The notes under the pieces are model-generated. The model made no database searches and was not told the origin of the DNA. It saw nothing but the letters and a program-made list of their open reading frames with translations. Source: Nitrospirota bacterium (GTDB taxonomy: Bacteria; Nitrospirota; UBA9217). From it: 64,000 nt of DNA. Shown here piece after piece: positions 9,716 to 25,730 of this stretch. How positions within the stretch are numbered: the first letter of the stretch is position 1; each line of letters starts with the position of its first letter. Made by a program: the position numbers and the translations under genes. The stretch spans positions 32,001 through 96,000 of the forward strand of contig CAWIYV010000001.1 in NCBI GenBank assembly GCA_963840455.1, written 5' to 3'.

Positions 9716-9813
9716 GTTCAATGTTTCATGTTTAAGTGCGGGAATATACAGGGTCCAGAATTTTACCGGTAGCAAGCTTACACTTTGAACTCTGCAACTC
9801 TGAACGTTAAACG
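9716..9813. repeat. Facing 7-bp repeat arrays (GTTCAAN ... TTGAACN)
   Basis: gttcaat gtttcat gtttaag (9716-9736) and ttgaact ctgcaact ctgaacg ttaaacg (9785-9813). Confidence 0.6.
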
Positions 9814-9828
9814 GATGAAGGAGTTATT

Positions 9829-10158
9829 ATGCTCAAATCCGGACCGGCAAAGAAGCTCACCATCTATCTCGACGAGTCGGACAGGGTCCATGGCAAACCT
9901 GTGTACGAGGTCCTGCTCGACATCTTCTTTAAAAGGAAGATCTCCGGCGCCAGCGTGTTCCGAGGCATCGAAGGCTACGGACATGACCGGGTGTTCCACA
10001 CCGCGAAGATCCTCGAGCTTTCCACAACCCTACCGGTCAGGGTCGAGGTCGTGGACACGCCCATCAAGATCGACGAGATCCTGCTCGAGATCACCCCCAT
10101 TGTTCATAAGGGGCTCATCACGGTGAGCGATACACAGGTGATAAAAGCGGGAAGCTGA
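9829..10158 (+). CDS. DUF190 (PII-like) protein, a usual crcB neighbour
   Basis: LTIYLDESD..HGKP, GASVFRGIEGYG, LPVRVEVVD. Confidence 0.88.
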   Translation: MLKSGPAKKLTIYLDESDRVHGKPVYEVLLDIFFKRKISGASVFRGIEGYGHDRVFHTAKILELSTTLPVRVEVVDTPIKIDEILLEITPIVHKGLITVSDTQVIKAGS

Positions 10159-10256
10159 AACCAGCTCGACATTCAAGGTTCAATCAATGAGCACCAAAGC
10201 AGACTCAAGGTTCGAACCTTAGTTCGCGGTCATCAATTTTCAAGGCGCTCTCTGCA

Positions 10257-10902
10257 ATGCCCAAGGATTTCACCAACCGACCCTTTGACAAGCTGAAAAA
10301 AGCAGCTCGAACGACGGCCGCCGCCAGCACCCGCACCCCCGCCGCCGCCGGTTCCGGACTCAAGACCCCTTACGGAGGATGAACTTTTTACACACGCCAT
10401 GACCGATGTCCAGGTGATCGAAGCGTTCCGGGTGCTGCCCTGCGCTAGGTTATCCCGGCGGGAAGCCCCGTCACGGGAGACGCGGGACCCTGATGACGAT
10501 GCCCTTGCCATCCTCAGGCAGATCGCCGAGGGTAGCCATCCCATCAATCTGTCGGACACGCAGGAATACATCGAGTGGACCAATCCCGAGGTGCCTGGTG
10601 AGGTCATCGGGAAACTGCATACCGGGCAATTCTCGGTGCAGGGCTATCTCGATCTCCATGGCTATACCGGTGATGAGGTCAACGAGACGCTCGACGCGTT
10701 CCTTGCAGAAGCGTTCCAGCGGGACTGGAAATGCGTCAAGGTCATCCATGGCCGGGGTTTGCGTTCGGTGAAGGGGCCGGTGCTGAAGGACGCGGTCGTC
10801 CGGAGGCTGGTGGGACGGTATCGGAAGCAGGTGATCGCCTTCGTCAGCGCGCGGCAATGCGACGGAGGGCTCGGCGCGCTGTATGTACTGCTGCGCCGGT
10901 GA
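10257..10902 (+). CDS. Smr/MutS2 domain protein, with an apparent +1 frameshift in the A6 run at 10296-10301
   Basis: MPKDFTNRPFDKLKK joins the Pro-rich linker and Smr domain (LDLHG, VIHGRG, GGLGALYVLL) if one A is removed. Confidence 0.85.
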
Positions 10903-13206: not shown

Positions 13207-16200
13207 CTACTGTCCGGTAATCCACTTCACCGCGTCGCGGACCGAAGCTTGGTCGAACTTCATCCGGAGCTTGACGAAAGGACCTTCAGCCGTGAAGTCC
13301 GCCTTCGAGAAGTCCCGGTCCATGAAGCCGATGAAATTGTATCCCACGCTGATCCAGAGGTTCATGGCCGCCTGGAGGCCCACCGACGCCTGCGTACTGT
13401 AGTCCGTCTGGCCGATGGCAAGCGATCGGAGCATGCTGACGCGCATCCCCACGTCCACCTTTTTCGTGATGTCGTACCGCCCCTCGATGCCGGTCAGATC
13501 CGTGTAGCCGCGGTAGTCGTTCTTTTCGATGGTCTCGCTCACGAACTTGGAGCCGTACTGGAAGGACCACTGCGTCCTGCCCTCGAGCTTGAAGTTCAGC
13601 ACGAAGTTATTCACCACCCGCCAGTTCTCGTAGGGCAGGTCCACGCCCTTCTGCTCCGCCTGAAGGAAGTCGAGCCGGTCGAGGAAGATGACGCGCGTCT
13701 CTAGAGGCCGGTAGGCCGCGCCGAGGCGGAGATCTCCTGAGAAGCTGACCGGTCCCGCAACGTTGACGGTCCGGAAGGTCTGGAGGCCCGCAGCAAGCGC
13801 GAGGCCGTTGCCCACCTCTCCGTTTGCGCCCCCGAAGACACCGAGTTTGTCTTCCGTCGTCGACCAGCGCTCCTCGACGCGGCCGGTCCACGACCACCGG
13901 TCAGCCCTGTACGCCGCGCCGAGGAAAACAGCTGTGAAGTCCTCGGTGCCACCCGACGCTGGCGGGACGTTCGTGTTCATCGAGTACTCGCCCGTCTTGT
14001 GGATCGTGGCTGACCGGTCGAAACCGGTATCAAGGCTCCACCGGCTGGTCAGCTGCCAGGCCTGCTTCAAACCGGTGGTGGCGAAGAGCCGGTTGCCGTT
14101 TTCCGTGGTCTGCTGCTCCATGGTCTGATTCAGCTGGGCGCCAGTCCAGGGGGCTGACCGGATGCCAACGCGGGACGTGGCCGTGTTCGCCTGAATGCCC
14201 CGCGTTACTTCCTGGTCCGCAAAGAGCGTTGTGTTCTTGGTGAGCAGGTAGTCCATTCCCACGGTCGTGCGCGTCGGGAAGTCCACGCTCGAGTCGGAAC
14301 TGTTCAGGGTCTGATCGTGCTGGATGCGGCCGGCCAACCGCTGGGAGAACTGGTATTTCGCGCCAAGGAAGATCTGCTCGGAACGGTGAACCTCACCCGT
14401 GCCGAGCGTGTCCTCGGCGTGCCGCAGCCCGGCGAAGACCTCATAGCCCGGCATGGCGTAGCGAGCCCGCGCCTCGGCCATGTCGCGCACCGCGCCAGTG
14501 GAGAGGTTCTCCTGACGGAAGACCTCGCCACCCAGGGACCAGGGTTGGTTGATGCGGTACAGCAGATCGCCGCCGACCTTGCGCGTTCCGGTTTCGCTGC
14601 CGTTCTGCTGGCCCACCCCGAAGCCGGGCTCCTGCTCGCGGACATACACCTTCCCTTCCGCCTGCTCGGAGCGGTGCTGGATCTCGGCAAGGTACGCCGA
14701 GCCTTCAATTGTAGTCCCGGCATTATCGCTCGAGGACCGAGCGGCCTCGGCGCGCAGCGTCGTGGACGGTGTCAGCCGGACCGAAGCGTCTACGCCGGTC
14801 AGGTTATTCTCGAGGCCCCGCGCCCCTTCATGGGCATGGGTCACGCCGACCTGGCTGCGCCGATCCAGCGAGTTCACGGCTACGCGGCCGCCATAGGTGT
14901 ACGACGTGTTCGAGGGATCGAAAGTCTCGTACTCGGTCACGATGTACACGGGGTTGAAGTTCTCGTCGCGGCTCTGCACGGGGGACTTGAAGAACAGCGT
15001 GCCGGACTCGTAATCGATGGTGTAATCCACATTCCGGCTAAGCCGCTGGGCCGACACGATCACCTCGCTCTTGAACCGGTCGCGGGCCTCGATCGTGACG
15101 GACTCCGAGTTCAGCACGATGTTCCTGCGTGACAGGTGGTAGAGGCCCGATGTACCGTCGCCGCGGAGCTCGTCCTTCACGTGCGCCTGATCGGTGTCCG
15201 CCGCGAAGACGGTGTACTCGAAGCGGTCGCCCTTCATCTCGGACTTCACGCCCGTTAGGTTCCTACTGTACCGGGATAGCTCGGTCATCGTCAAGCCCGT
15301 GGCGTAGTCGCCGAAGAGAGCATAGAACTGGCCTCGCTCCAGCTTGACATACACATGCTTGGCGCTCGGTGCGTCGTTCAGCTGCTCCGTGGCGTCGCCG
15401 TACAGCATATAGTACTTGTTCGGGTCAATGTACTGATACATGTTTCGCCGGCCGCCTGGTTCCTTCGCGCTGTCGTAGGCCGCGGTCAGGAGCCACTCGC
15501 CCTTGATCACGCCCTTGGTGTAGAAGGCCACGCGACCCTCGTGGTAGAGGTCGTCCGAGCCGCCCGTGGCGCCGAAGGACTCCATGTTCCCGGTCACGAT
15601 ATTGTATCCCACCGTGCCTTCGGCAAGGCCGACGAGCACCCAGTCGCGGGCCTCGGGCCGGAGCCACGCGCGAACCTCCTGGGACCCCGACGCGAGCGGA
15701 ATGCGCACCACCGCCTCGCCGGACTGCGTCGTCGGCGCCAGCTCGATCAGGGCGATACCATCGGCGCCCACCTGGTAGCGTATCCGGTCCGTGGCCGGGC
15801 CGGAGATCGGCGACTGCTGGAGCTGGGCCGCGCGCTGCTGCGCGAAATGCGGCGGATCCACCGTAAACTCACCGGCGATCCCCTCGCGCGCCGGATGACC
15901 GTCCTTGTCCAGCAGGCGCACCGCGATGGCCGGGGGGGTGATCCCATCAGCGAGCAGCCGCGACCGTTCGGGGACGAAGACCGCTGCCACGGGGTTTCCG
16001 GAATAATGGACAATCCGGAACATCTGATGGAGCACGGTGCCCGCCTCGTCCCTGACCACGACCTCGAAGCGGTTGTCGCCCTCAACGATGTTGATACCGC
16101 TCCATGTGCTCACCGCCAGACCGCCGTCGCCCCGCTTTAGAGTGCCTTCGAAATATATCGGGTCCACGGGCTTTCCGTCTTGCAGAAGCGTGAGGCGGTG

Positions 16201-19200
16201 CACGGGGTCGTGCTTGAACGCGGCCTTAGTGCTCGGTATAGATGGATGGTAGTTCTCCGGCGGCCAGAGCCAGCTGAAACCGGCGACCGCAGACCCGAGC
16301 CACGCCGCATTGTAGTCGGGCATGGCGTTTCCTGCGGAGCGGTCCGTAGCCTCCGCGTTCGCTTCCTGTGGCCACTCCTCGCCCGGCCGCAGACCCATCG
16401 TTGCCACGGCCTTCATGCCGCTGGGTGGACCGCTCACCAGCGCCGGCACGGCGACGATGATCTTGGGAGGCCTGATCCGGAGCTCCACCCGGCGGTTCCG
16501 TGCGCGGCCCTGCTCGGTACTGTTGCTCGCCACGGGCTCGTCCGGCCCCTTGCCGTCATAGGTGATCTGGTCGGACGTGAGGCCCAGACCGTCGGCAATG
16601 TACGCTCCGACCGTGGCAGCCCGCTCGTAGGACAGCGCGTAGTTGTCGGGGTAGCACGCCTGCAGCCGGGGGCTGATTCGCCGGGCGTCGGTGTGGCCGG
16701 TGACCGTGATATGCTCCACCGACTTCTGTTTCATCCGGGAGATGACGCGGTCCAGTTCCTCTTTGTCCCGCCGGGTAAGCTCGGCGCTCCCACTTTCGAA
16801 CTCGGGATGCAACACGATGTCCGGCGCCGGACGGAGCTCGTCTCGTGTGCCGCGGACGAGCTCCGTGCTCACCGCCGGCGTGCGGTTGTTCTTGCCCTCC
16901 GGCGAGTCAGCGGTAAGGATGGCGGAGGTTCTGAACTGAGCGCCTTCAGGGCCGCTGACGGGCACAACCGTATCGAAGGAAAGCGTTCCACCCCAGTTCG
17001 CCGGGATCTCGGCGAACCGGAAGGTGACCGTGCTGCCAATCTCTTGCGGCTCATCGATGGGGAACGCCTTCCAAAACGTGCCGGTCGGATTGCTGACTGG
17101 CCTGCACTCGGGTCGCGGCCCGGCTGCAAAGGCGGCCGTACCTGGCCGGTAAACACCCCCTTCGGGCAGCATGATGGAGAGCTTCAGGTTCCGCGCCGGC
17201 ACCACGCCGACGTGCACCGGGACCGTATATTGAATGAGGTCTTTCCCCTCCTCCAGAGGCGGCTCGCCAGGTGCCGGCCGCTTCGGAGACGTGAGGATCT
17301 CGATGCCGACCTCGCCGACCTGTTTCGGCTTGAGGCCCACGTGGAAGTCCGCGCGCCAGAGCGCCCCGCCTTGGAGGTCCACAAACTGAGAGAACGGTGT
17401 GCCGGCAAACCGCGTGTTCTCCTCGCAGGCCATGACCTCGTACTTCTCCGGCAACGTCGACAGGTCGACCTGCACCACATGCGTGCCCGGCTGCACGGCT
17501 GCGAAGTGGTACATGCCGTTCTGGTCGGTCACCACGAATGTCCCATCCTCGCGGTAAATCCGCACTCCCGCGAGACCGCCCTCCTCGCGCCGCTCCTTGT
17601 CACCACAGCCGTCCACGCTGACCCGTCCGACGATGGTCGCCGTGCTCCGGAACAGGTCCTCAATGACCACGACTGTGGCCTGCGCCGTGTTCGAAATCGC
17701 GCCGGGCGTGCCGGAGGCAACGGCTGTGTTGGTTGCTATGCCCGGCCGGGCCCCAGCGCCCACCTCGGCCACATAGACGATGTCGGCCTTGGTTCCAGCT
17801 GACAGGTCGCCAGCAGAGAAAGTCAGACTGCGGCCGTCAGAGGAAACAACGGGATCGGCGGTTGTCGCGCTGTTCAAGCGTGCCGAGCCTTTCCGGTAGC
17901 GGAAGCCAATCGGCAGCCGGTCCGTGACCATGACCGCCAGGATATTGCCGGTAGAATTATTTTCCACGGTGAGGCGATAGGGTACGAAGTCCCCCACCGC
18001 TGCGGTCTGTTTGCCTGCCGTCTTGACAAGCCACAGGCTTGCGTTCACGGGGTCCACGGGGATGTCTATGTGGATGGAAGGGCCGGGATTCACAACGAAG
18101 TCCTCGCCACGCGACCCGGGTATTACGATGGCGAAGGGCCCGCCTGGCAGCGTCTGGATGATGTTGGTCGCCACCTGGGACGGCGCGCCGTAGCCAGTGG
18201 GAGGCGTCACAACAAGCCGATAGGTGCCGGGCGCGACGATGAAAGGAAACCGGTAGCCGCCGGGCGTGAAGGTGTAGATTCTGCCGCTGCCGTCCGTAGC
18301 CGTGGCGCCCGAGACAACTGCCGATGGGAAAATGCTGACGCCGTCCTCGCCGTACACCGTGGCCGGAAGGCCGGTCGAAGCATCGATCATCGTAACCGTG
18401 GCCCCGTCCACCGGGAGACCGGACACACTGCTGAAGACTAGTCCGTAGGGATCGACCAGCGCCCCTGCTACCGGTGTGTCCACCGCATCGGCACTGTCGG
18501 TGTACGACGCATTGATACGCGATCCGGTCGCCACCTGCAGGACGCCATTCCCACTCGCGGCCGGCGTAGGCCCGGTCTGGATGTACCCGGCGAAAACGCC
18601 CGTGTTCGGGCCGGATTCAAGGAGCCGCAGCACCTCCGTGTCAAGGGTCACGGGGTTCTGGATGGTAACAAGCACGGTCTCACGGACTGCGGGATCCAGG
18701 TTCTGGTCCAGATCAGTCAGCCGGATGAATACTGGTTCTCCCATGTTGAACTGCGTTGCAGGCACGAGCGGGACCGGAGCTGAGAGATCGATAGGCGCCG
18801 AGCCGACGCCTGGAGTTATATGCACCGGCGGGGCAAGCGCGATGAACGTGCCCGTCGGAGTGCCGTTATTGCTGTAGGACGTCGTCCCGACGGACACGAG
18901 CTGGGCGCCCGGCGCACCAGGGCCGTACTGCAGGAGTTCCAGGGTCGAAGGGGTGCGGAGCGCGATCGTGGTCACGGTGACGCTGTTTGAGCTGACCAGT
19001 AGAGGGACTGAGGATGCTCCGGTGGTATAGACCGCTGCTGCGGTGTTTATGATGTTCGTTCCGGGCAGCGTCGCGGAAATACTCGCTACGGGTACGAGCA
19101 TGATGGATAAGAATGCAAGAAGAACGATGATTAAGGAGAATAATGACGACGTTCTGACCGATGAGTCTCTGTTCTGACGGCTGGCGGCAGCCATGTCGGG

Positions 19201-19281
19201 GCGCACAAGTGGCATCATGCCGGTATTGCTGCCGGATGCCCGTTTCACGCGTATCGTTTGTATGCGCTTATCCCTTTCCAA
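13207..19281 (-). CDS. Giant exported protein: donor-like N-strand, Ig/carboxypeptidase-regulatory-like domains, complete DUF11 domain, SdrD-B-like domain, OmpA-C domain, predicted C-terminal beta-barrel (start uncertain)
   Basis: Hydrophobic signal ending ASISA; LVKT..VGDFVPYRLTVEN..VTDRLP..ATNTAVA (DUF11); VTGHTD..LSYERA..GRARNRRVEL (OmpA); ~800 aa of amphipathic strands ending FVKLRMKF. Confidence 0.85.
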   Translation of the reverse strand: MERDKRIQTIRVKRASGSNTGMMPLVRPDMAAASRQNRDSSVRTSSLFSLIIVLLAFLSIMLVPVASISATLPGTNIINTAAAVYTTGASSVPLLVSSNSVTVTTIALRTPSTLELLQYGPGAPGAQLVSVGTTSYSNNGTPTGTFIALAPPVHITPGVGSAPIDLSAPVPLVPATQFNMGEPVFIRLTDLDQNLDPAVRETVLVTIQNPVTLDTEVLRLLESGPNTGVFAGYIQTGPTPAASGNGVLQVATGSRINASYTDSADAVDTPVAGALVDPYGLVFSSVSGLPVDGATVTMIDASTGLPATVYGEDGVSIFPSAVVSGATATDGSGRIYTFTPGGYRFPFIVAPGTYRLVVTPPTGYGAPSQVATNIIQTLPGGPFAIVIPGSRGEDFVVNPGPSIHIDIPVDPVNASLWLVKTAGKQTAAVGDFVPYRLTVENNSTGNILAVMVTDRLPIGFRYRKGSARLNSATTADPVVSSDGRSLTFSAGDLSAGTKADIVYVAEVGAGARPGIATNTAVASGTPGAISNTAQATVVVIEDLFRSTATIVGRVSVDGCGDKERREEGGLAGVRIYREDGTFVVTDQNGMYHFAAVQPGTHVVQVDLSTLPEKYEVMACEENTRFAGTPFSQFVDLQGGALWRADFHVGLKPKQVGEVGIEILTSPKRPAPGEPPLEEGKDLIQYTVPVHVGVVPARNLKLSIMLPEGGVYRPGTAAFAAGPRPECRPVSNPTGTFWKAFPIDEPQEIGSTVTFRFAEIPANWGGTLSFDTVVPVSGPEGAQFRTSAILTADSPEGKNNRTPAVSTELVRGTRDELRPAPDIVLHPEFESGSAELTRRDKEELDRVISRMKQKSVEHITVTGHTDARRISPRLQACYPDNYALSYERAATVGAYIADGLGLTSDQITYDGKGPDEPVASNSTEQGRARNRRVELRIRPPKIIVAVPALVSGPPSGMKAVATMGLRPGEEWPQEANAEATDRSAGNAMPDYNAAWLGSAVAGFSWLWPPENYHPSIPSTKAAFKHDPVHRLTLLQDGKPVDPIYFEGTLKRGDGGLAVSTWSGINIVEGDNRFEVVVRDEAGTVLHQMFRIVHYSGNPVAAVFVPERSRLLADGITPPAIAVRLLDKDGHPAREGIAGEFTVDPPHFAQQRAAQLQQSPISGPATDRIRYQVGADGIALIELAPTTQSGEAVVRIPLASGSQEVRAWLRPEARDWVLVGLAEGTVGYNIVTGNMESFGATGGSDDLYHEGRVAFYTKGVIKGEWLLTAAYDSAKEPGGRRNMYQYIDPNKYYMLYGDATEQLNDAPSAKHVYVKLERGQFYALFGDYATGLTMTELSRYSRNLTGVKSEMKGDRFEYTVFAADTDQAHVKDELRGDGTSGLYHLSRRNIVLNSESVTIEARDRFKSEVIVSAQRLSRNVDYTIDYESGTLFFKSPVQSRDENFNPVYIVTEYETFDPSNTSYTYGGRVAVNSLDRRSQVGVTHAHEGARGLENNLTGVDASVRLTPSTTLRAEAARSSSDNAGTTIEGSAYLAEIQHRSEQAEGKVYVREQEPGFGVGQQNGSETGTRKVGGDLLYRINQPWSLGGEVFRQENLSTGAVRDMAEARARYAMPGYEVFAGLRHAEDTLGTGEVHRSEQIFLGAKYQFSQRLAGRIQHDQTLNSSDSSVDFPTRTTVGMDYLLTKNTTLFADQEVTRGIQANTATSRVGIRSAPWTGAQLNQTMEQQTTENGNRLFATTGLKQAWQLTSRWSLDTGFDRSATIHKTGEYSMNTNVPPASGGTEDFTAVFLGAAYRADRWSWTGRVEERWSTTEDKLGVFGGANGEVGNGLALAAGLQTFRTVNVAGPVSFSGDLRLGAAYRPLETRVIFLDRLDFLQAEQKGVDLPYENWRVVNNFVLNFKLEGRTQWSFQYGSKFVSETIEKNDYRGYTDLTGIEGRYDITKKVDVGMRVSMLRSLAIGQTDYSTQASVGLQAAMNLWISVGYNFIGFMDRDFSKADFTAEGPFVKLRMKFDQASVRDAVKWITGQ

Positions 19282-19306
19282 TGGTTACCGTTCTACTCCT
19301 GAAAAT

Positions 19307-19336
19307 CTCCCCTCCCACACTCAGGTGGGAGGGGAG
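19307..19336 (-). terminator. Strong intercistronic hairpin between the pilin and anchor genes
   Basis: CTCCCCTCCCAC-6nt-GTGGGAGGGGAG perfect 12-bp stem, followed by ATTTT on the minus strand. Confidence 0.7.
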
Positions 19337-19357
19337 TGGTCGCTGCAGCTTTTTAAT

Positions 19358-20461
19358 TTAGTTCACCGTAACCTGGTACTTGATCCGCGCAACACCGCCA
19401 AGGGAGTTAACAGTTAAGTTCGTGACATTGACCGTGCCTGCGGTAAAATCGGCATTGTCGACATCGCCATTCGTATTCGTGCGGCATCCGAACGTGCCGG
19501 TGCCCGGATCAACGGCGATGCCCTGGCCCGCTATGCAGCTAGGCCCTCCGTCATCGAACTGCGTCCGGAATGTCACCGGCAGCGCACCCAGTGCGTCCGC
19601 GATAGACACGTTCGTAGCATTGGACGTGCCGGGATTCGTGATCGTCACTATGTAGGTGATGACCGCGCCAGGGATCGACCGCGGCGAGGTGGTCCCGTTT
19701 ACGGGATCGGAATAGACCACCGGGGTCTTGGTCACAGTGATCCCCGATATCCGGAACGCACTCCGGTCGGATGCGCGAGCATCGCGTCCTACGTCGCCGG
19801 TGACTGTCCCGTTGCCGGCATCACCGAAGACCGTATCAACACCGTTGTAGTTGGCGACACCCTCGGCCAGGTTCGTCGCTACCCCTGCGCCGCTGCCAAA
19901 GGCGCGGGCTACCGCGGTAAGCGAAAATGCCTGGAGCGCGCCATTCGCCTCACCCGCCGGGATGTTGGCGACGATAAATACTGTCACCGAGACGTCCGAG
20001 TTGATGGTACTGAACAGCGCCGTGTCAACCCCCGGGTCATAGATACCGTTACCAGTATCCACATAGGCGGCGACCGTCGGGACGGTGACAAAGGTGTTCG
20101 CCCCGCCGTTATAGGGGTTGGTGGCCGAAACGGCCGTCACCAGCCCGAAATCGAGCTGTGTGTTCGTGATGTTCGTCACCAGGAACGTCAGGTAGGCATT
20201 CGTTGCGCCTCCCGCCACGTCGACGAAGTTCGCGTTCTGGCGGGTGACCGTCATGTTCACCCGCATACCGACCGTGAATGTGGCCGTGGAGACAAGCGCG
20301 CTTCCCGGCACTCCTCCGATGGAATAACCGACCGACACCGAGTTGCTGATGCCGGTGCCTGCAATGGTGCCCGCTGCCCAGATGGACGCAGGTACCGCAA
20401 TGGCGATCGCCGTAATGATCGCGACCGCCGTCAGGATCCTTTTAATGCTTGTTGCTTGCAT
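19358..20461 (-). CDS. Exported DUF11-family protein, candidate major pilin
   Basis: AAGGAGG RBS; signal peptide ending SIWA; N-terminal AGTIAGTGISNSVSVGY; C-terminal VTKT..SIPGAVITYIVTITN..IADAL..YQVTVN-stop. Confidence 0.8.
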   Translation of the reverse strand: MQATSIKRILTAVAIITAIAIAVPASIWAAGTIAGTGISNSVSVGYSIGGVPGSALVSTATFTVGMRVNMTVTRQNANFVDVAGGATNAYLTFLVTNITNTQLDFGLVTAVSATNPYNGGANTFVTVPTVAAYVDTGNGIYDPGVDTALFSTINSDVSVTVFIVANIPAGEANGALQAFSLTAVARAFGSGAGVATNLAEGVANYNGVDTVFGDAGNGTVTGDVGRDARASDRSAFRISGITVTKTPVVYSDPVNGTTSPRSIPGAVITYIVTITNPGTSNATNVSIADALGALPVTFRTQFDDGGPSCIAGQGIAVDPGTGTFGCRTNTNGDVDNADFTAGTVNVTNLTVNSLGGVARIKYQVTVN

Positions 20462-20661
20462 GACTTCCTCCTTAGGTTAGTGTTTTCGAATATGCAAAAT
20501 AGATTGTTCTGTGGCCGTTCTTGCCCCAGGTCTTTTTATCCCCCCTTCCATGATTCTCCGAACTTGTTCCAGAGAAATCTTCGTTCTTTTCGTTTTCGAG
20601 AATCGTTCCTATATTGTGATATCATGGCATGCTCCTCCCAAGTGCTCCGTCCTTCTCGCGG

Positions 20662-21156
20662 CTACCGGATCTGCGCACGAAACGAGACGCTTCCGCTAGC
20701 GCCAGGTGCCAGGGGGGCCGTCACGGTCCAGCGGATGTGCGTAAAATCCGCGGGCAGGGCCGGACGGACTTTGCCGTCCTTGTTCGTGATCTGCAGTTTT
20801 TCCGGTGCAGCGTATTTCTTGCCACCGTCGACGGAAAAGTCGATCTTCGTTCCCTTGCCCTCTGCGCTCTTTTCCACATAGGCCATGTGCTCGGGCACGG
20901 GGTTCGTGACCACCACCCCAGTGGCCGCCTGCTTTCCTTTGTTGACATAGCGTGTGGTGAAGATCACGACATCGCCTGGAACGACCTTGGCTTTAGAGGC
21001 CTCGATGCGCTTCACCTCGGTCGTTCCCTGGGCTGTCTTTTCCTTGACCTCCACTTCGGCTAGGCTCGTCACGACAATGTCCCCTTGCTGTTGCGCCCAG
21101 GCGGACAGGGGGGCCAGTGCCAATACCAGCATGCATCCAATGATCCTGTTCCTCAT
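20662..21156 (-). CDS. Small exported single DUF11-like domain protein, candidate chaperone
   Basis: Signal ending SAWA; VVPGDVVIFTTRYVN..VVTNPVP..FSVDGG..HIRWT..LAPGASGSVSFRAQIR-stop. Confidence 0.8.
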   Translation of the reverse strand: MRNRIIGCMLVLALAPLSAWAQQQGDIVVTSLAEVEVKEKTAQGTTEVKRIEASKAKVVPGDVVIFTTRYVNKGKQAATGVVVTNPVPEHMAYVEKSAEGKGTKIDFSVDGGKKYAAPEKLQITNKDGKVRPALPADFTHIRWTVTAPLAPGASGSVSFRAQIR

Positions 21157-21179
21157 CTGCGTTCCCTCCTTAGTATTGA

Positions 21180-22217
21180 TTAATCAATTTTTACATCGAA
21201 CGAAATGACCTGCGCAGGCGACGCGCTGGTCAGGTTTCCCACATTGACCGTAATGGTATTCGGAGAAGTGATCCCGAAATTGCCCGCGTCGGCGTCTGTG
21301 GCGTCGGTCAGCGGCACTCCGTTCAGTACTATCGTTCCGGGCTTGTAGGTGGTGCTCGCCGGGATCGCGTCGGAGATGACGATGCCAATTGCAGTTCCGG
21401 TTCCCGCCATGGTCACACTCAGGGTATAGCGGATGGTCGCTCCCGGTTGAGGCCGGTTCCCGCCGTAGGGATCGAGAATGACGGCCGTCTTGGTCACATT
21501 CACCGTGGCACCACTGGAGATGGCATAGCTTCCGGCGGCGGTCCGGGTACCCTGCGACGCGCCGATCACCGCGTCGGAACCTCCTTCGCCGGCACCGGGC
21601 AGGATGGTCCCGGCAGGACCGGTCCCGCTGGCTGAGACCGCAGTCAGGTTGACCGTACCGACGTCGCCATTGGTCATGGTGGTCGCCGGTATACTTGAAA
21701 GTACAAAGATCGTCAGAAAACCGTCAGCTGTGACCGTGCCGGTGCCCGAGCTGTACAGCACGTCCGTGCTTTGGTCAAAGACGCCGTTCCCATTAGCGTC
21801 GAAATAGATCGCCGTGACCACCGGATCGAACTGGTCCCCGCCAATGCCCGCCCCAGTCGCGGACAGAGTATATGCGTCATTGCCGTTCCCAGTGTTGGTG
21901 ATACGGAGCGTAGAGACCGCATTGGCCTGGCCCGGTAGAACGGGTACCGGAGAAGCGTCCTGCAGGGTGAGGGTAAGTTCGAGACGCTCGGCAATCCGGA
22001 GGGATGCGTTGCTGGACTGCGAGTAGTTGTTGCCGGCTATCGTGTAGTTCACGCTTACGGTGTTCATGATCACCGTGCCCGCTGCTGTTCCGACAGCACG
22101 CGCGCTGTCCTGACCCACCAGGCTTGCGGCAAGGAACGCGATGGCAATCAGGGCCTTTTTATATGTAGTTCCGCTTCTCTTCATGGGTCGATCTTTCGTG
22201 CGAGGCGGGCAGAGCAC
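21180..22217 (-). CDS. Exported DUF11-family protein, second or minor pilin (alternative start ATG 22184)
   Basis: Signal ending SARA; N-terminal VGTAAGTVIMNTVSVNY; DANGNGVFD motif; C-terminal VTKT..PGATIRYTLSV..ISDAIP..ISFDVKID-stop. Confidence 0.8.
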   Translation of the reverse strand: MLCPPRTKDRPMKRSGTTYKKALIAIAFLAASLVGQDSARAVGTAAGTVIMNTVSVNYTIAGNNYSQSSNASLRIAERLELTLTLQDASPVPVLPGQANAVSTLRITNTGNGNDAYTLSATGAGIGGDQFDPVVTAIYFDANGNGVFDQSTDVLYSSGTGTVTADGFLTIFVLSSIPATTMTNGDVGTVNLTAVSASGTGPAGTILPGAGEGGSDAVIGASQGTRTAAGSYAISSGATVNVTKTAVILDPYGGNRPQPGATIRYTLSVTMAGTGTAIGIVISDAIPASTTYKPGTIVLNGVPLTDATDADAGNFGITSPNTITVNVGNLTSASPAQVISFDVKID

Positions 22218-22232
22218 GCCTCACTTAGCCTC

Positions 22233-25200
22233 CTAATTGATCCTGACCCGGAACTGGATCGTGAACTGCGGGTTCGGCGGGCCGCTCGTTCCGTTCAACG
22301 CTCCGGCAGGGTTGATGCGTACGCCCTTCACATTCGAGTCATACCCGCCAACCGACACCGGCGTATAGTTGTACGGAGGACCGCCGCCAATCTGAGACGA
22401 GTAGGTCACAGCGGTCGCATAGTTGTACGTCACTCCGCAAGGAGGGACGGCGCTGCAAGTAAAGGTCACGGGATCGCCCGATCCGGTATCGACGTACATG
22501 CTTGTATTGGCCGGAATCGGGTCCGTGATGACGATCGAATTGCTATCAGCGGAGCCCGGGCCGCTATTGATCACCGTTACGGTATACAGCATCACCGCCC
22601 CGGGAATGGATTTTGGGTTGGTCGTATTATTGTATGGGTCGGAGAAGGTCGAGACCGCCTTAACGACCAATATGCTCGGTACAGCGCGTTCACCGATCGC
22701 GAATACGCCAAACCCACTCATACCGGTCGCCGTCGTATTATTGGGATTTTTCGCACCCACGGTCGGGTAGGTCCACACGCCGCCGCTCTTGCGTCCGACA
22801 ATAAAGTTGGCCGTGTTCGCACCGCTATCAATATCGCCATTCACAAATGTGAATGTCGCGTCATACGTTGCGAAGGCTAATGAAGCCCCTTGCGTCAGGG
22901 TCCATGTGCGGTTCACGCTCTTTCCCGCATCAATGCCTGAGGTGTTCGCCGTGGTGTCCCCATGGTCGCCCGTATCGGTGCGAGCGATCAGTACGCCGTT
23001 CACCAGCGTCGAGGTGACGTTGGCCATGGCGACCGTCACCGGGGTGTAATTCGTTGCATCGCCGATAGGGAATGTACAGAGCGTAGTGCCTGCATTGGTC
23101 GGATAATGCAGGCTCAGATTGCCCACCACAAATCCGCCGGTTCGTACGATTCCGGTAGCACAGCTGGACCCCACTTCTAGAACATTCGCGCCGGTCGTGA
23201 AAATCCCGTTGGTGAGAGTTAGCACACCGCTGACGGTGGGACTGGCGCTAAGCGTCGCTCCAAACGCATCGTTCATTATTAAGTTAGCGTAGGTGCCGGT
23301 ACCTGAAAGAACGTGAACGGCCGTGCCGCCGCTCAACGTAATGCTTCCGGTGGTGGCGGTATGCGTTCCGGTGTTGTTCACGTTGCCATTCACGGTCTGG
23401 ATGCTCGCACCACTTCCAAAGATCACACTGGTAATCGCAAGATCTCCCCTCACAACGAAGCTGCCCGCCGCGGTCTTGACGCCGCTACCGCTCACGGTGA
23501 GATTTCCATAGCCCGGAGCCGCTTCAGAAGCAATATTCTGGTTGGCGCCGCTGTATTCGACCGTGCTGGTTGCGCCGAGCGTGTGCGTTGTGTAGTTGGT
23601 TGGAAAGCTGTTGGTCCCACCGATCTTGAGCGTTGTTCCGTTGGCCACCGTGATCATGCCACCGGCAGCCGTTCGGTTCGCGGTGAAGGTAGCGAGATCC
23701 AGCGTTCCCGTGGAAACGGAAAGGTTCCCGACTTGGGTCGCATTGCCCGTCAGGGCGGCTGCATTGCCAGCACCCACATTTATCGCAAGGTTGTTAAAGT
23801 TGGAGGCACCTATCTGCGGTGCTGCGCCTGTGAAAATCACTGTTCCGGTAGGCGTGAAGGTGCCGGCCGATCTCGTCCAGGTGCCCGCGCCTGTGCCGGT
23901 CACCGTAATCGTGTTACCGTTGTCAATCAGCGTGCCGGCCGTCTGGTTGAAGGTGCCGATGGAAATTGGTGTAGCGGCGGTTAAGGTCGTTGCTCCGGTG
24001 GAAGTGTAATTGAGAGCACCGGCAACGGTGAAGCCGGCGTTTCCCGTCATCGTCGCAGCGCCTGAAATGGTAAGGTCGCCGTTGATCGTGGTCACACCTG
24101 TCATGGTCTTAGCGCCGCTGTTGCTCAGGGTAAGGTCATAATAGCTCGTCGGCTCTACTGTCTGCGCGCCGGCACGGTTATAGTTCACCGTGTTGCCGAT
24201 GGCAGACGCGTCGAGAGTGTTAATGCCCGGCGGTCCGATGAACCCGATGCTCAGCGTGCCGGTATTGGCCAGCGTGCCGGTACCAGCCAAGGCGGTCGTG
24301 ACGTTTAGATTTCCGTTATTGGTCAAAGTCACCCCGGTAACGGTAACGTTGGGGATGGTGGTAATAGTTGTTCCACCAAAGCTCTGGCTATTGGTGTTAA
24401 AGGCGTAGACCCCAGTGCCCGCAGTGAAGGTTCCGTTGTTGATCAGGCCGCCCTGCATCGTAATGTTCTCATTAGCGCTATTGTTCCAGGTGCCGCCGTT
24501 ATTGATCGTGATGTTTCCCGTGTAGGTTTTTGTCCCTGCTGCATTGTTGTGAGTCAACGTGCCTGACACTGACGTCGTACCCGTCACTACAGTGTTTAAA
24601 CCGCCCACGGTCAAGGTCGTGCCCGCGCCGACGGAGAGATTGCCGAGGATGTTCAGCGTGCCGGCAGCGGGAGTTTTTGTACCGCTCCCCGACAGAACAA
24701 GATTCGGGTACGTCATCCCGGCCGTTGTGATTGCCTGATTTCCGGCTAAAGCGAGTGTTATCGTTGCTGTTGAGTTTCCTAACGCGTTGAAGGTGTTGGT
24801 TCCTGAATTAGCGGCAAATGGAGTGGCATTGTAAAATTGCAGGTTGGGCGAGCCCGACAATTCCACTTTACAGGTCCCATTACATGCCCCCCCCGGTCCG
24901 CCATTGAGATCAATTCTGTCCAATAACCAGGTTCCCGAACCGGAGAAGGTAGAAGTGACGTTGTTTCCCGCAAGGTAGATGGCATTTGTGCTGCCAGAAA
25001 CAGTGAAGTTGACGCTGCCATTGTTGACGAGGTTGCCCCCCAAGTATATGTCGGAGTTGGCTCCAGCGGCGATAGCAAGAGTTCCTCCTGAATCGATCTG
25101 CAGGCTCGCCAACGTGTTAGTGTTGGCATTGAACGTTACCGTGCTGCCGTTCGGTACGATGACTGAGTCGCCTGCTGCCGGCACATGCCCGCAACTCCAG

Positions 25201-25613
25201 GTAGCCGCCGTTCCCCAATTGACGGCACCGGTGTTGCTGGTGCAGGTCGCCGCCTGCGCAACAGATCCCCACGCACCCAGCCAGATCAGCATTACTGTCA
25301 CGATGCAAATTTTGAAAAATTTTCTTATTGCCCGTCTTGGCACGCTAGCCTGTCCGCTGTGGTCAACCGAACCATCCATTTTGTTCCATGAAAGTGGCAC
25401 TGTTCGCGACGCGGCAGACTTCTCTCTTCTTCTGCATTCCGGTATGAGTCGGGATAGTTCTTTGTCTTGCACGTTCACTTGGTCTTTATATTCCCTCATC
25501 GCGCCAACAACGTAGCGCATTGTGTACTGCCTCATCGATGACAGCATCCGTTCTCTCTTGTCATCTGAATTGACCATAATAAACACCCTCACAAATACAA
25601 AAAAACATGGCAT
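22233..25613 (-). CDS. Large Thr/Gly/Asn-rich fibrillar adhesin with C-terminal DUF11-like domain (true start probably internal, e.g. ATG 25379)
   Basis: Signal ending VAQA; WGTAATWSCGHVPAAGD N-domain; repeats such as YxNLxxSGSGxKT; C-terminal VVKA..SIPGAVMLYTVTVIN..ITDPIP..IQFRVRIN-stop. Confidence 0.8.
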   Translation of the reverse strand: MPCFFVFVRVFIMVNSDDKRERMLSSMRQYTMRYVVGAMREYKDQVNVQDKELSRLIPECRRREKSAASRTVPLSWNKMDGSVDHSGQASVPRRAIRKFFKICIVTVMLIWLGAWGSVAQAATCTSNTGAVNWGTAATWSCGHVPAAGDSVIVPNGSTVTFNANTNTLASLQIDSGGTLAIAAGANSDIYLGGNLVNNGSVNFTVSGSTNAIYLAGNNVTSTFSGSGTWLLDRIDLNGGPGGACNGTCKVELSGSPNLQFYNATPFAANSGTNTFNALGNSTATITLALAGNQAITTAGMTYPNLVLSGSGTKTPAAGTLNILGNLSVGAGTTLTVGGLNTVVTGTTSVSGTLTHNNAAGTKTYTGNITINNGGTWNNSANENITMQGGLINNGTFTAGTGVYAFNTNSQSFGGTTITTIPNVTVTGVTLTNNGNLNVTTALAGTGTLANTGTLSIGFIGPPGINTLDASAIGNTVNYNRAGAQTVEPTSYYDLTLSNSGAKTMTGVTTINGDLTISGAATMTGNAGFTVAGALNYTSTGATTLTAATPISIGTFNQTAGTLIDNGNTITVTGTGAGTWTRSAGTFTPTGTVIFTGAAPQIGASNFNNLAINVGAGNAAALTGNATQVGNLSVSTGTLDLATFTANRTAAGGMITVANGTTLKIGGTNSFPTNYTTHTLGATSTVEYSGANQNIASEAAPGYGNLTVSGSGVKTAAGSFVVRGDLAITSVIFGSGASIQTVNGNVNNTGTHTATTGSITLSGGTAVHVLSGTGTYANLIMNDAFGATLSASPTVSGVLTLTNGIFTTGANVLEVGSSCATGIVRTGGFVVGNLSLHYPTNAGTTLCTFPIGDATNYTPVTVAMANVTSTLVNGVLIARTDTGDHGDTTANTSGIDAGKSVNRTWTLTQGASLAFATYDATFTFVNGDIDSGANTANFIVGRKSGGVWTYPTVGAKNPNNTTATGMSGFGVFAIGERAVPSILVVKAVSTFSDPYNNTTNPKSIPGAVMLYTVTVINSGPGSADSNSIVITDPIPANTSMYVDTGSGDPVTFTCSAVPPCGVTYNYATAVTYSSQIGGGPPYNYTPVSVGGYDSNVKGVRINPAGALNGTSGPPNPQFTIQFRVRIN

Positions 25614-25701
25614 TTAGTAACATAAGCTTCAAACATAATAAAATAATTAACTTCTTTTTTTTGAAGTCCAACAAATATTTTTAATACCTATGATACTGTA
25701 A

Positions 25702-25730
25702 ATTATAATAAATCAAATATTATTTGTCAA
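25702..25730 (-). promoter_or_regulatory. Perfect consensus sigma70 promoter upstream of the DUF11 cluster
   Basis: TTGACA (25730-25725)-N17-TATAAT (25707-25702) with a very AT-rich upstream tract. Confidence 0.85.

Follow-up and report, generated by a model that had tools for sequence, protein, structure and literature searches.

The window analysed here, 64,000 nucleotides (nt) of a Nitrospirota bacterium, contains on its minus strand the gene of a secreted protein of 164 amino acids (aa), hereafter p164, which is the third of five genes in an operon. We propose, with a probability of about 0.45, that p164 is a reversible holder of donor hairpins acting before export, either as a chaperone or as a placeholder. 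The computed basis of this proposal comprises the domain, its truncation, the loss of its reactive residues, the membership in the operon and the fit of a donor hairpin at the level of a model.

By its profile matches, p164 is a DUF11/CLIPPER domain. Pfam PF01345 (DUF11) was found at residues 52-106, corresponding to profile positions 7-57 of 114 (E 1.9e-8; 35.1 bits, cut-off 24.6), and TIGR01451 was detected with E 9.9e-10 (38.3 bits, cut-off 24). The only other Pfam match at E <= 0.1 was a weak one to DUF7507; neither PapD_N, PapD_C nor any other chaperone family was hit at this threshold. On the level of sequence, p164 is a single domain of 143 residues outside the PapD family. The name CLIPPER was given to DUF11 in a survey of 2025, whose crystal structure of the Acinetobacter silvestris adhesin B9T28_05395 (PDB entry 9IFR) contains an intramolecular isopeptide bond between Lys715 of the first strand and Asn806 of a late strand, presumably catalysed by Asp748, and which mentions some DUF11 domains without the residues of this triad (PMC12617251). 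In chain numbering the triad corresponds to about K10, D44 and N101 of 123 residues. The model of p164 calculated with AlphaFold2 (AF2) from 30 homologues reached a predicted local distance difference test score (pLDDT) of 85 and a predicted template modelling score of 0.74. Residues 1-24 scored below 50 and are disordered in the model, and over residues 61-164 the monomer model exceeds 94. With Foldseek no match of this model was obtained at E <= 1e-3. With VIA-align, 9ifr_A, the only solved CLIPPER domain, was ranked third (Z 8.3; root-mean-square deviation 2.0 over 87 residues) amid many Ig-like matches with Z 7-9. In the PDB sequence search no relative of p164 with a solved structure was found; the best match, a xyloglucanase over the Asp-box-like FSVDGGKKY (E 0.088), was at chance level. 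An Asp-box-like S-x-D-x-G-x-x-Y/F (residues 108-115, 20812-20835) is nearly invariant in the p164 family.

The operon consists of five minus-strand genes for proteins of 1126, 345, 164, 367 and 2024 aa (13207-25730, including a promoter-like site; Table 1), here called the tip (1126 aa), the two subunits (345 and 367 aa) and the anchor (2024 aa) besides p164. From the promoter-like site to the end of the anchor no further accessory gene was found. In the two subunits and the anchor the mature N-terminus resembles the late Asn strand of DUF11 and the strand next to it (motif GT.I.N.A.V.Y), and in the tip and the two subunits the C-terminal DUF11 domain ends just before the Asn strand. From its sequences, the operon seems to divide a CLIPPER domain among several proteins. 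As the internal DUF11 of the anchor is complete, the donor of the anchor is an orphan. This orphan donor and the orphan acceptor of the tip are the main argument for an insertion of hairpins between proteins and for a chain of tip, subunits and anchor. Conservation of the triad was counted in families from 77 p164 loci, which were obtained by a scan of species-representative genomes. In the 345-aa family Lys is present in 70 of 71 members, Asp in all 71 and the donor Asn in 59 (Ser in 10). Both Lys and Asp were found in 39 of 39 members of the 367-aa family, with the donor Asn in at least 90%. The tip family has Lys in 32/32 and Asp in 30/32 members and the donor motif in none of 31. In the anchor family, where the internal DUF11 is complete, the donor Asn is present in 52 of 59 members.

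With hhalign the p164 family was aligned to the C-terminal domains of the two subunit families (probability 96% for 345 aa and 98% for 367 aa) and of the tip family (97%), and in all three alignments p164 and its partner end on the same column. p164 lacks both the Asn-bearing strand and the one that follows. No donor could be detected either: GT.I.N.A.V.Y was found in 0 of 79 p164 members versus 53/80 for the 345-aa, 16/41 for the 367-aa and 40/70 for the anchor family, and the mature protein begins only about four residues before strand A, the putative cleavage site being after AWA and before QQQ. A previous reading of this DNA from its letters and open reading frames (ORFs), the sequence-only reading, had described p164 as a truncated acceptor without a donor strand. 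Both parts of this description were borne out, and the strings it quoted from the ORF (VVPGDVVIFT, LAPGASGSVSFRAQIR followed by the stop, VVTSLA and VVTNPVP) are all present in p164.

Furthermore, the residues of the isopeptide triad (Lys on strand A, Asp after strand C, Asn on a late strand) are missing. The residue aligned with Asn85 is an invariant Asp in each of the three acceptor families, in agreement with the exchange of Asp for Asn proposed before. Among 56 in-operon members position 85 is N in 50, S in 3, D in 2 and L in 1; among 13 stand-alone members, whose loci have no other gene of the operon, it is Y in 6, H in 4, F in 2 and R in 1. The exchange of Lys for Ser, also proposed before, held in substance. 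No Lys is found at position 31 (T 26, S 19, N 10, A 8, H 4, V 1, C 1) or at position 33 (A 57, V 5, G 4, S 2, N 1) in any of the 69 members, so that the conserved loss looked for by the sequence-only reading could be shown for both residues; the register is uncertain, Ser31 or Ala33 being the equivalent. By alignment the Lys of the tip corresponds to Ser31 and that of the 367-aa and 345-aa proteins to Glu34 or a gap, the N-terminal part of these alignments being of low confidence. By spacing (L...K in the subunits vs L...A in p164) the equivalent is Ala33, as it is in the complex model described below. A single Lys occurs at position 35 among the 69 members, and position 30, which alternates with 31 and 33 and is variable and polar, carries Lys in 33 of them. 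The inward face of strand A has almost no Lys in the family. K49/R50 was dropped as a candidate for the canonical Lys, since position 49 is occupied by R in 33 of the 69 members and by K in only 24, so that no Lys is conserved there either. Because Asn occupies the Asp site and Lys is lacking, p164 would be unable to form a Lys-Asn bond. One in-operon homologue, L026:9869-10480, combines Asp85 with Lys35 and may be a still reactive variant.

For the complex model, residues 42-200 of the 345-aa subunit (hairpin and middle domain, without its own acceptor) were paired with residues 22-164 of p164, each chain with a 35-row alignment from the same loci; the 345-aa hairpin was the sole donor modelled. 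An ipSAE of 0.69 (runs 0.70, 0.69 and 0.69) was obtained versus 0.00 for the best of three controls. In calibration 58 of 80 solved complexes and 2 of 110 mismatched pairs scored as high, figures which are approximate for custom alignments. The contact agreement was at least 94% and the pLDDT of the partners at least 88. On the 345-aa side the interface consists of residues 42-44, 48, 50-61, 65, 67-78 and 111, on the p164 side of residues 24-33, 53-54, 57-61, 64, 66, 68, 70, 76-86, 88-91, 149 and 163-164, which include the invariant residues 88-91. The best-defined pairs (donor:p164) are 54:85, 55:84, 56:83, 57:82, 58:81, 60:78 and 56:29, and Asn85 contacts donor residues 54-55. In this model the donor Asn strand is predicted to run antiparallel to strand C of p164, next to strand A. 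The restraint given by Cys26 and Cys74, a pair discussed below, sets strands A and C in the same direction; therefore Asn52 of the donor would lie opposite Ala33, diagonal to Ser31 and to Asn85. The predicted polarity is that of a subunit hairpin in the groove of p164; no strand of p164 is donated, as a PapD-type chaperone would do. The complex prediction called for by the sequence-only reading thus gave a hairpin in the groove, and its contrast with PapD describes the polarity fairly, p164 being no member of the PapD family. Because p164 is homologous to true acceptors, the model shows a groove compatible with the hairpin and not actual binding. Covariation between the p164 groove and the donor residues, examined per locus, gave no pattern, since the donor motif hardly varies.

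We also considered residues 25-40 as a self-complementing pseudo-donor strand, which would either close the domain or be donated as in PapD. This reading was rejected for four reasons: acceptor domains have the same layout of strand A, Gly turn, return strand and PGD strand; Cys26 and Cys74 set the start of the strand beside the B-C loop, as for strand A; the global alignment matches it with the Lys-bearing strand of the tip; and the complex model puts a foreign hairpin between strand A and strand C. In the AF2 model of p164 strand A spans residues 27-40. Of 69 homologues, 36 carry both Cys26 and Cys74 and 30 carry neither; the window copy has D26 and G74. The pair looks lineage-specific, mostly for Gammaproteobacteria, and is read as a putative disulfide by which the start of strand A would be linked to the loop preceding strand C.

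The composition of p164 differs from that of the subunits. Mature p164 contains 15 Lys in 143 residues, 25% K/R/D/E, and has an isoelectric point (pI) of 9.6; the 345-aa and 367-aa subunits have 3 Lys in 304 and 2 Lys in 338 mature residues, about 10% charged residues and a pI of 4.1-4.3. Hence the description of p164 as Lys-rich and charged, unlike the Thr/Gly-rich subunits, was correct; the subunits are also acidic. One Lys of each subunit is the invariant, presumably reactive one. In the nearest loci (L001-L008) the identity to the window copies is 50-58% for p164 and 45-60% for the anchor, and 33-50% for 345-like and 31-37% for 367-like proteins. All 69 p164 family members have E89, H90, M91 and Y93. 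The composition and the slower divergence, as far as sequences can tell, fit a soluble assembly factor or machinery and not an exposed subunit.

In a protein collection 219 homologues of p164 with 90-287 residues were found (E <= 1e-3), the best 120 of the 219 being 49-96% identical. Many of them are labelled only as 'uncharacterized repeat protein (TIGR01451 family)'. Longer fused forms were not detected among 2411 candidates, which is weak evidence. The protein occurs in Nitrospirota, Thermodesulfobacteriota/Geobacter, Desulfuromonadales, Lentisphaeria, one metagenome-assembled genome of the Gemmatimonadaceae and many Gammaproteobacteria, including Steroidobacteraceae, Woeseiaceae and the cultured Povalibacter uvarum DSM 26723. 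Among the 77 loci a 345-like gene lies upstream in 57 and a subunit gene downstream in 60; the anchor was found in 58 and a recognisable tip in 31. Several of the remaining loci are short contigs. The genome of the window has one copy of p164. In 151 sampled genomes of the phylum the p164 profile matched 20 (E <= 1e-5), 16 with full-length p164 and four with partial DUF11 matches in giant ORFs. The C-terminal profile of the anchor matched 24 of the same genomes (E <= 1e-20), of which 17 reach the end of the barrel and seven are partial matches in other giant proteins. A full anchor is present in all 16 genomes with full-length p164, and p164 in 16 of the 17 with a full anchor, counts that include kin and are not independent. 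In the exception (G115) the anchor frame is cut at 1316 aa in an assembly of 310 contigs. Judged by gene order and co-occurrence, p164 is a core part of the operon.

From these results the following mechanism may be outlined. The tip and the two subunits each carry a C-terminal domain, short of the last two strands, with the reactive Lys and the catalytic Asp, and the two subunits and the outer-membrane anchor carry the missing two strands with the reactive Asn as an N-terminal hairpin. Insertion of a hairpin into the groove of the next protein would complete the fold and lock it by a Lys-Asn isopeptide bond, so that tip, subunits and anchor would become one covalent chain. p164, which carries Ala or Ser for Lys, Asn for Asp and no hairpin of its own, would have the same open groove and would accept a strand without reacting. 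In the periplasm it would take the donor hairpins of newly exported subunits and prevent them from entering their own acceptor or that of another subunit before export. Release would occur at the anchor or pore, where insertion into a reactive acceptor would be fixed irreversibly by the isopeptide bond. Actual binding, its reversibility, the periplasmic location, the hand-over at the pore and the fibre itself are what we infer here. The wider proposal is an undescribed pathway of diderm bacteria, in which a split CLIPPER domain joins tip, subunits and outer-membrane anchor and locks itself covalently. p164 would be its dedicated chaperone, with a polarity opposite to that of all pilus chaperones known so far, a dead acceptor handing the hairpin to a live one with the isopeptide bond as driving force. 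We hold this wider proposal as possible, at somewhat less than even odds.

Several findings weigh against a holder of donor hairpins. Thirteen of the 77 loci contain no other gene of the operon and form a stand-alone branch of p164. In five stand-alone genomes searched, each with one p164-like gene, no anchor was detected (E <= 1e-10), and no 345-like subunit was found save for a weak match to the p164-like gene itself. The stand-alone proteins keep PVPEHMxY, D110, R131 and W143 and carry a bulky residue at position 85. As the motif is kept where no fibre genes were detected, the invariant residues have some role beyond this fibre or beyond donor binding; alternatively, the branch changed its partner and filled its groove. 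An empty groove of two strands is expected to be unstable alone, yet the monomer model of p164 is confident. The pass of the complex model may reflect likeness to true acceptors, close cousins also passing, and is what completion of the fold by a homologue would give; the modelling covered one donor, the 345-aa hairpin, with no cognate acceptor pair as comparison. Two of the 56 in-operon members keep Asp85, one of them (L026) with a Lys at the inward-facing position 35. Capping of the donors would leave the open acceptor grooves of the subunits unprotected. Moreover, the hairpins of the 345-aa and 367-aa subunits may insert into their own acceptors, which would give no polymer. One rival reading is an accessory protein which does not bind donor hairpins. 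Its surface of PVPEHMxY, SxDxG, R131 and W143 would have another target, such as a part of the anchor in the periplasm, glycan or peptidoglycan, or a metal, and its likeness to acceptors would be due to ancestry only. We regard this as unlikely and give it weight mainly because of the stand-alone branch, which keeps the invariant residues in genomes without detected anchor or subunits. Besides the confident monomer model and the possible origin of the complex pass in likeness alone, the Cys26/Cys74 pair, which 36 of the 69 homologues have, suggests a monomer that is stably folded. In contrast, the small Asn85 of the in-operon members versus Tyr, His, Phe or Arg in the stand-alone branch fits a groove kept open only where donors exist. 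The strict gene order and the co-occurrence also argue against an unrelated role, and the gap of 23 nt after the 345-aa gene points to translation of p164 together with this donor-bearing protein.

The main rival is a distal cap or minimal tip. In fibres without an adhesin tip, an exported p164 would cover the outermost subunit by binding its free donor hairpin non-covalently, and it may also start the assembly as first acceptor. p164 shares the topology of the tip, with an acceptor and no donor, the modelled insertion serves a cap equally well, and a recognisable tip gene is present in only 31 of the 77 loci; a basic surface could moreover stick to negatively charged material. However, a cap gains nothing from losing Lys and Asp, a covalent cap being at least as good, and this loss is nevertheless a conserved feature (N in 50 of 56). 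In a chain that is covalent everywhere else, a non-covalent joint would be the weakest point. A cap seems unlikely to us. The chaperone is preferred because only reversibility explains the loss of both reactive residues with the groove and the Asn kept, and because composition and conservation, including the slower divergence, are those of machinery and not of an exposed subunit. That the reactive residues were lost by decay of a functionless subunit paralogue is very unlikely, with a probability close to zero: E89, H90, M91 and Y93 are kept throughout the family, the 219 homologues have the same length, Nitrospirota, Desulfuromonadales/Geobacter, Lentisphaeria and Gammaproteobacteria all have the gene at a fixed place in the operon, and it has an intact frame and a strong ribosome-binding site. 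The reversible donor binder of the sequence-only reading, which had been offered with a cap as the other option, is thereby retained in part. The conserved loss, the fit in the model and the basic, conserved character of p164 speak for it; the motif of the stand-alone branch and a model pass that may stem from likeness speak against it.

The features of the operon are compiled in Table 1. The p164 gene starts with ATG and has an intact reading frame. For sampled words of the sequence no RNA data were listed; small shares matched, all in metagenome DNA runs.

Table 1 Position of p164, its parts and the surrounding operon in the window
Feature	Position	Strand	Basis
Promoter-like TTGACA-17-TATAAT, 12/12 consensus, 5' of the tip gene	25702..25730	-	Consensus scan, pattern match
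Tip, 1126 aa: G8 (Pfam E 3.5e-8), Thr/Gly-rich repeats, C-terminal acceptor-only CLIPPER	22233..25613	-	
Subunit, 345 aa: N-terminal donor hairpin (Asn52), middle domain, C-terminal acceptor (Lys243, Asp283)	21180..22217	-	
Donor hairpin of the 345-aa subunit, residues 42-78, modelled within the p164 groove	21984..22094	-	
Ribosome-binding site AAGGAGGG, 7 nt 5' of the p164 ATG	21164..21171	-	Read from sequence; strong
p164 gene, 164-aa secreted DUF11/CLIPPER protein, stop codon included	20662..21156	-	ORF list; PF01345 and TIGR01451 over cut-offs
Putative signal peptide of p164, residues 1-21, AWA then QQQ	21094..21156	-	Read from translation
Strand A of p164, residues 25-40 (GDIVVTSLAEVEVKEK)	21037..21084	-	S31/A33 at the place of the subunits' reactive Lys
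Asn85 codon of p164, place of the catalytic Asp of CLIPPER acceptors	20902..20904	-	hhalign column
PVPEHM of p164, residues 86-91, invariant motif together with Y93	20884..20901	-	Family alignment
Subunit, 367 aa: N-terminal donor hairpin (Asn40), C-terminal acceptor (Lys245, Asp289)	19358..20461	-	
Anchor, 2024 aa: N-terminal donor hairpin (Asn79), complete internal DUF11, SdrD_B-like region, OmpA domain, C-terminal run of ~32 long strands	13207..19281	-	

The stop of the 345-aa gene and the start of p164 are 23 nt apart, the end of p164 and the start of the 367-aa gene 200 nt. This second spacer (20462-20661) is AT-rich, and no minus-strand promoter-like or terminator-like site was scored within it. 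A wider second gap was also observed in L005, L009 and L018 (111-219 nt). In eight stand-alone loci inspected out of the 13, the p164 gene lies between a divergent phosphoenolpyruvate carboxykinase gene and a DinG-like helicase gene, and tRNA-modification and regulator genes were found near the stand-alone genes. The inspected loci are L028, L029, L035, L037, L038, L048, L071 and L077 (about 9800-10500 in each), all from Steroidobacteraceae-type genomes.

The AF2 model of the last 1085 residues of the anchor has a pLDDT of 67.6 and shows 31-32 consecutive strands of 10-17 residues at residues 1445-2007. With Foldseek the barrels of LptD, SprA and SlpA were matched with probability 1.0 and weak template modelling scores of at most 0.2. 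From this model a large outer-membrane barrel at the C-terminus is likely; because of these scores and the pLDDT no family was assigned. The strand run (13207-17500, residues ~1445-2007), which follows the OmpA domain, may be a very large barrel anchoring and exporting the fibre. Two further giant ORFs of the window genome, G000:C9:269229-270644 and G000:C11:633192-639277 (frames of about 2026 aa, and of 1716 and 3090 aa), share the middle of the anchor C-terminal profile or a DUF11 repeat, and no 164-aa gene lies nearby.

To our knowledge, the strand-exchange pili of Gram-negative bacteria known so far are non-covalent and need a chaperone that fills the groove of the subunit. PapD consists of two Ig-like domains. 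Passages on PapD-type chaperones in two articles describe the donation of a strand into the groove of the pilus subunit (PMC11821415, PMC1868955). As proposed here, p164 would resemble PapD and FimC in being periplasmic, in delaying the polymerisation of subunits until the outer-membrane site is reached and in using strand complementation without energy input. In contrast to PapD, which donates a strand, it would accept strands of the subunits and thus act with opposite polarity; it is a single domain, and the final joint would be covalent. FimH and PapG are described in the first of these articles, in its part on tips, as acceptor-only proteins with an open groove and no donor strand of their own, which can hence be placed at the distal end only (PMC11821415). 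They are structural and have a lectin domain; p164 is a bare domain without the residues that the tip of the operon keeps (Lys 32/32, Asp 30/32). Matches to 'DUF11' in the same article, which deals with tafi, were discarded, since they refer to DUF1102.

No description of a DUF11/CLIPPER strand-exchange fibre or of a p164-type accessory protein was found in full-text searches of the literature, supplements lying outside them. Among known isopeptide proteins, the domain of 9IFR belongs to the same Pfam and NCBIfam family as p164, with the common layout PGD...N.G...(D/N)P and a fold that may be similar. It is a complete, self-locked domain, whereas p164 lacks the Asn strand and the next strand, has Asn at the Asp site and no Lys. 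Exchange-and-lock fibres are described for BsaA of Clostridium perfringens, with an N-E-K triad and operon paralogues (BsaB and others) without the triad, in a preprint whose passages on BsaB propose no role as donor holder (bioRxiv 10.1101/2024.11.04.621531), and for the Sulfolobus thread in an article (PMC9715654) and its preprint. As proposed for the p164 operon, an N-terminal strand enters the next subunit in these fibres and an Asn-Lys isopeptide bond follows. They have a TasA-like or other fold, and their hosts, a monoderm bacterium and an archaeon, have no outer membrane in the way of export. The p164 operon differs by its split CLIPPER domain, its diderm hosts and the giant anchor with OmpA domain and putative barrel. 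If our reading is true, it joins covalent exchange-and-lock with the strand exchange of Gram-negative bacteria and adds an unreactive decoy acceptor as control element. It would explain how a spontaneously cross-linking polymer is kept unreacted across the periplasm, and would assign a role to a widespread family of proteins with about 164 aa.

The closest functional analogue of p164 would be SpyDock. Reportedly, SpyDock is a catcher made unreactive, which holds its tag reversibly instead of covalently and is derived from a CnaB domain with Lys-Asp chemistry. It is described as an engineered 'pseudo-SpyCatcher' (PMC6465384). p164 and the reactive acceptors of its operon would, if the reading holds, provide protein engineering with a natural pair of reactive and unreactive catchers on a putative CnaA-like fold. 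Thus, p164 would be the natural counterpart of SpyDock; it differs from this man-made protein in being natural and putatively CnaA-like and in the loss of both the Lys and the catalytic acid.

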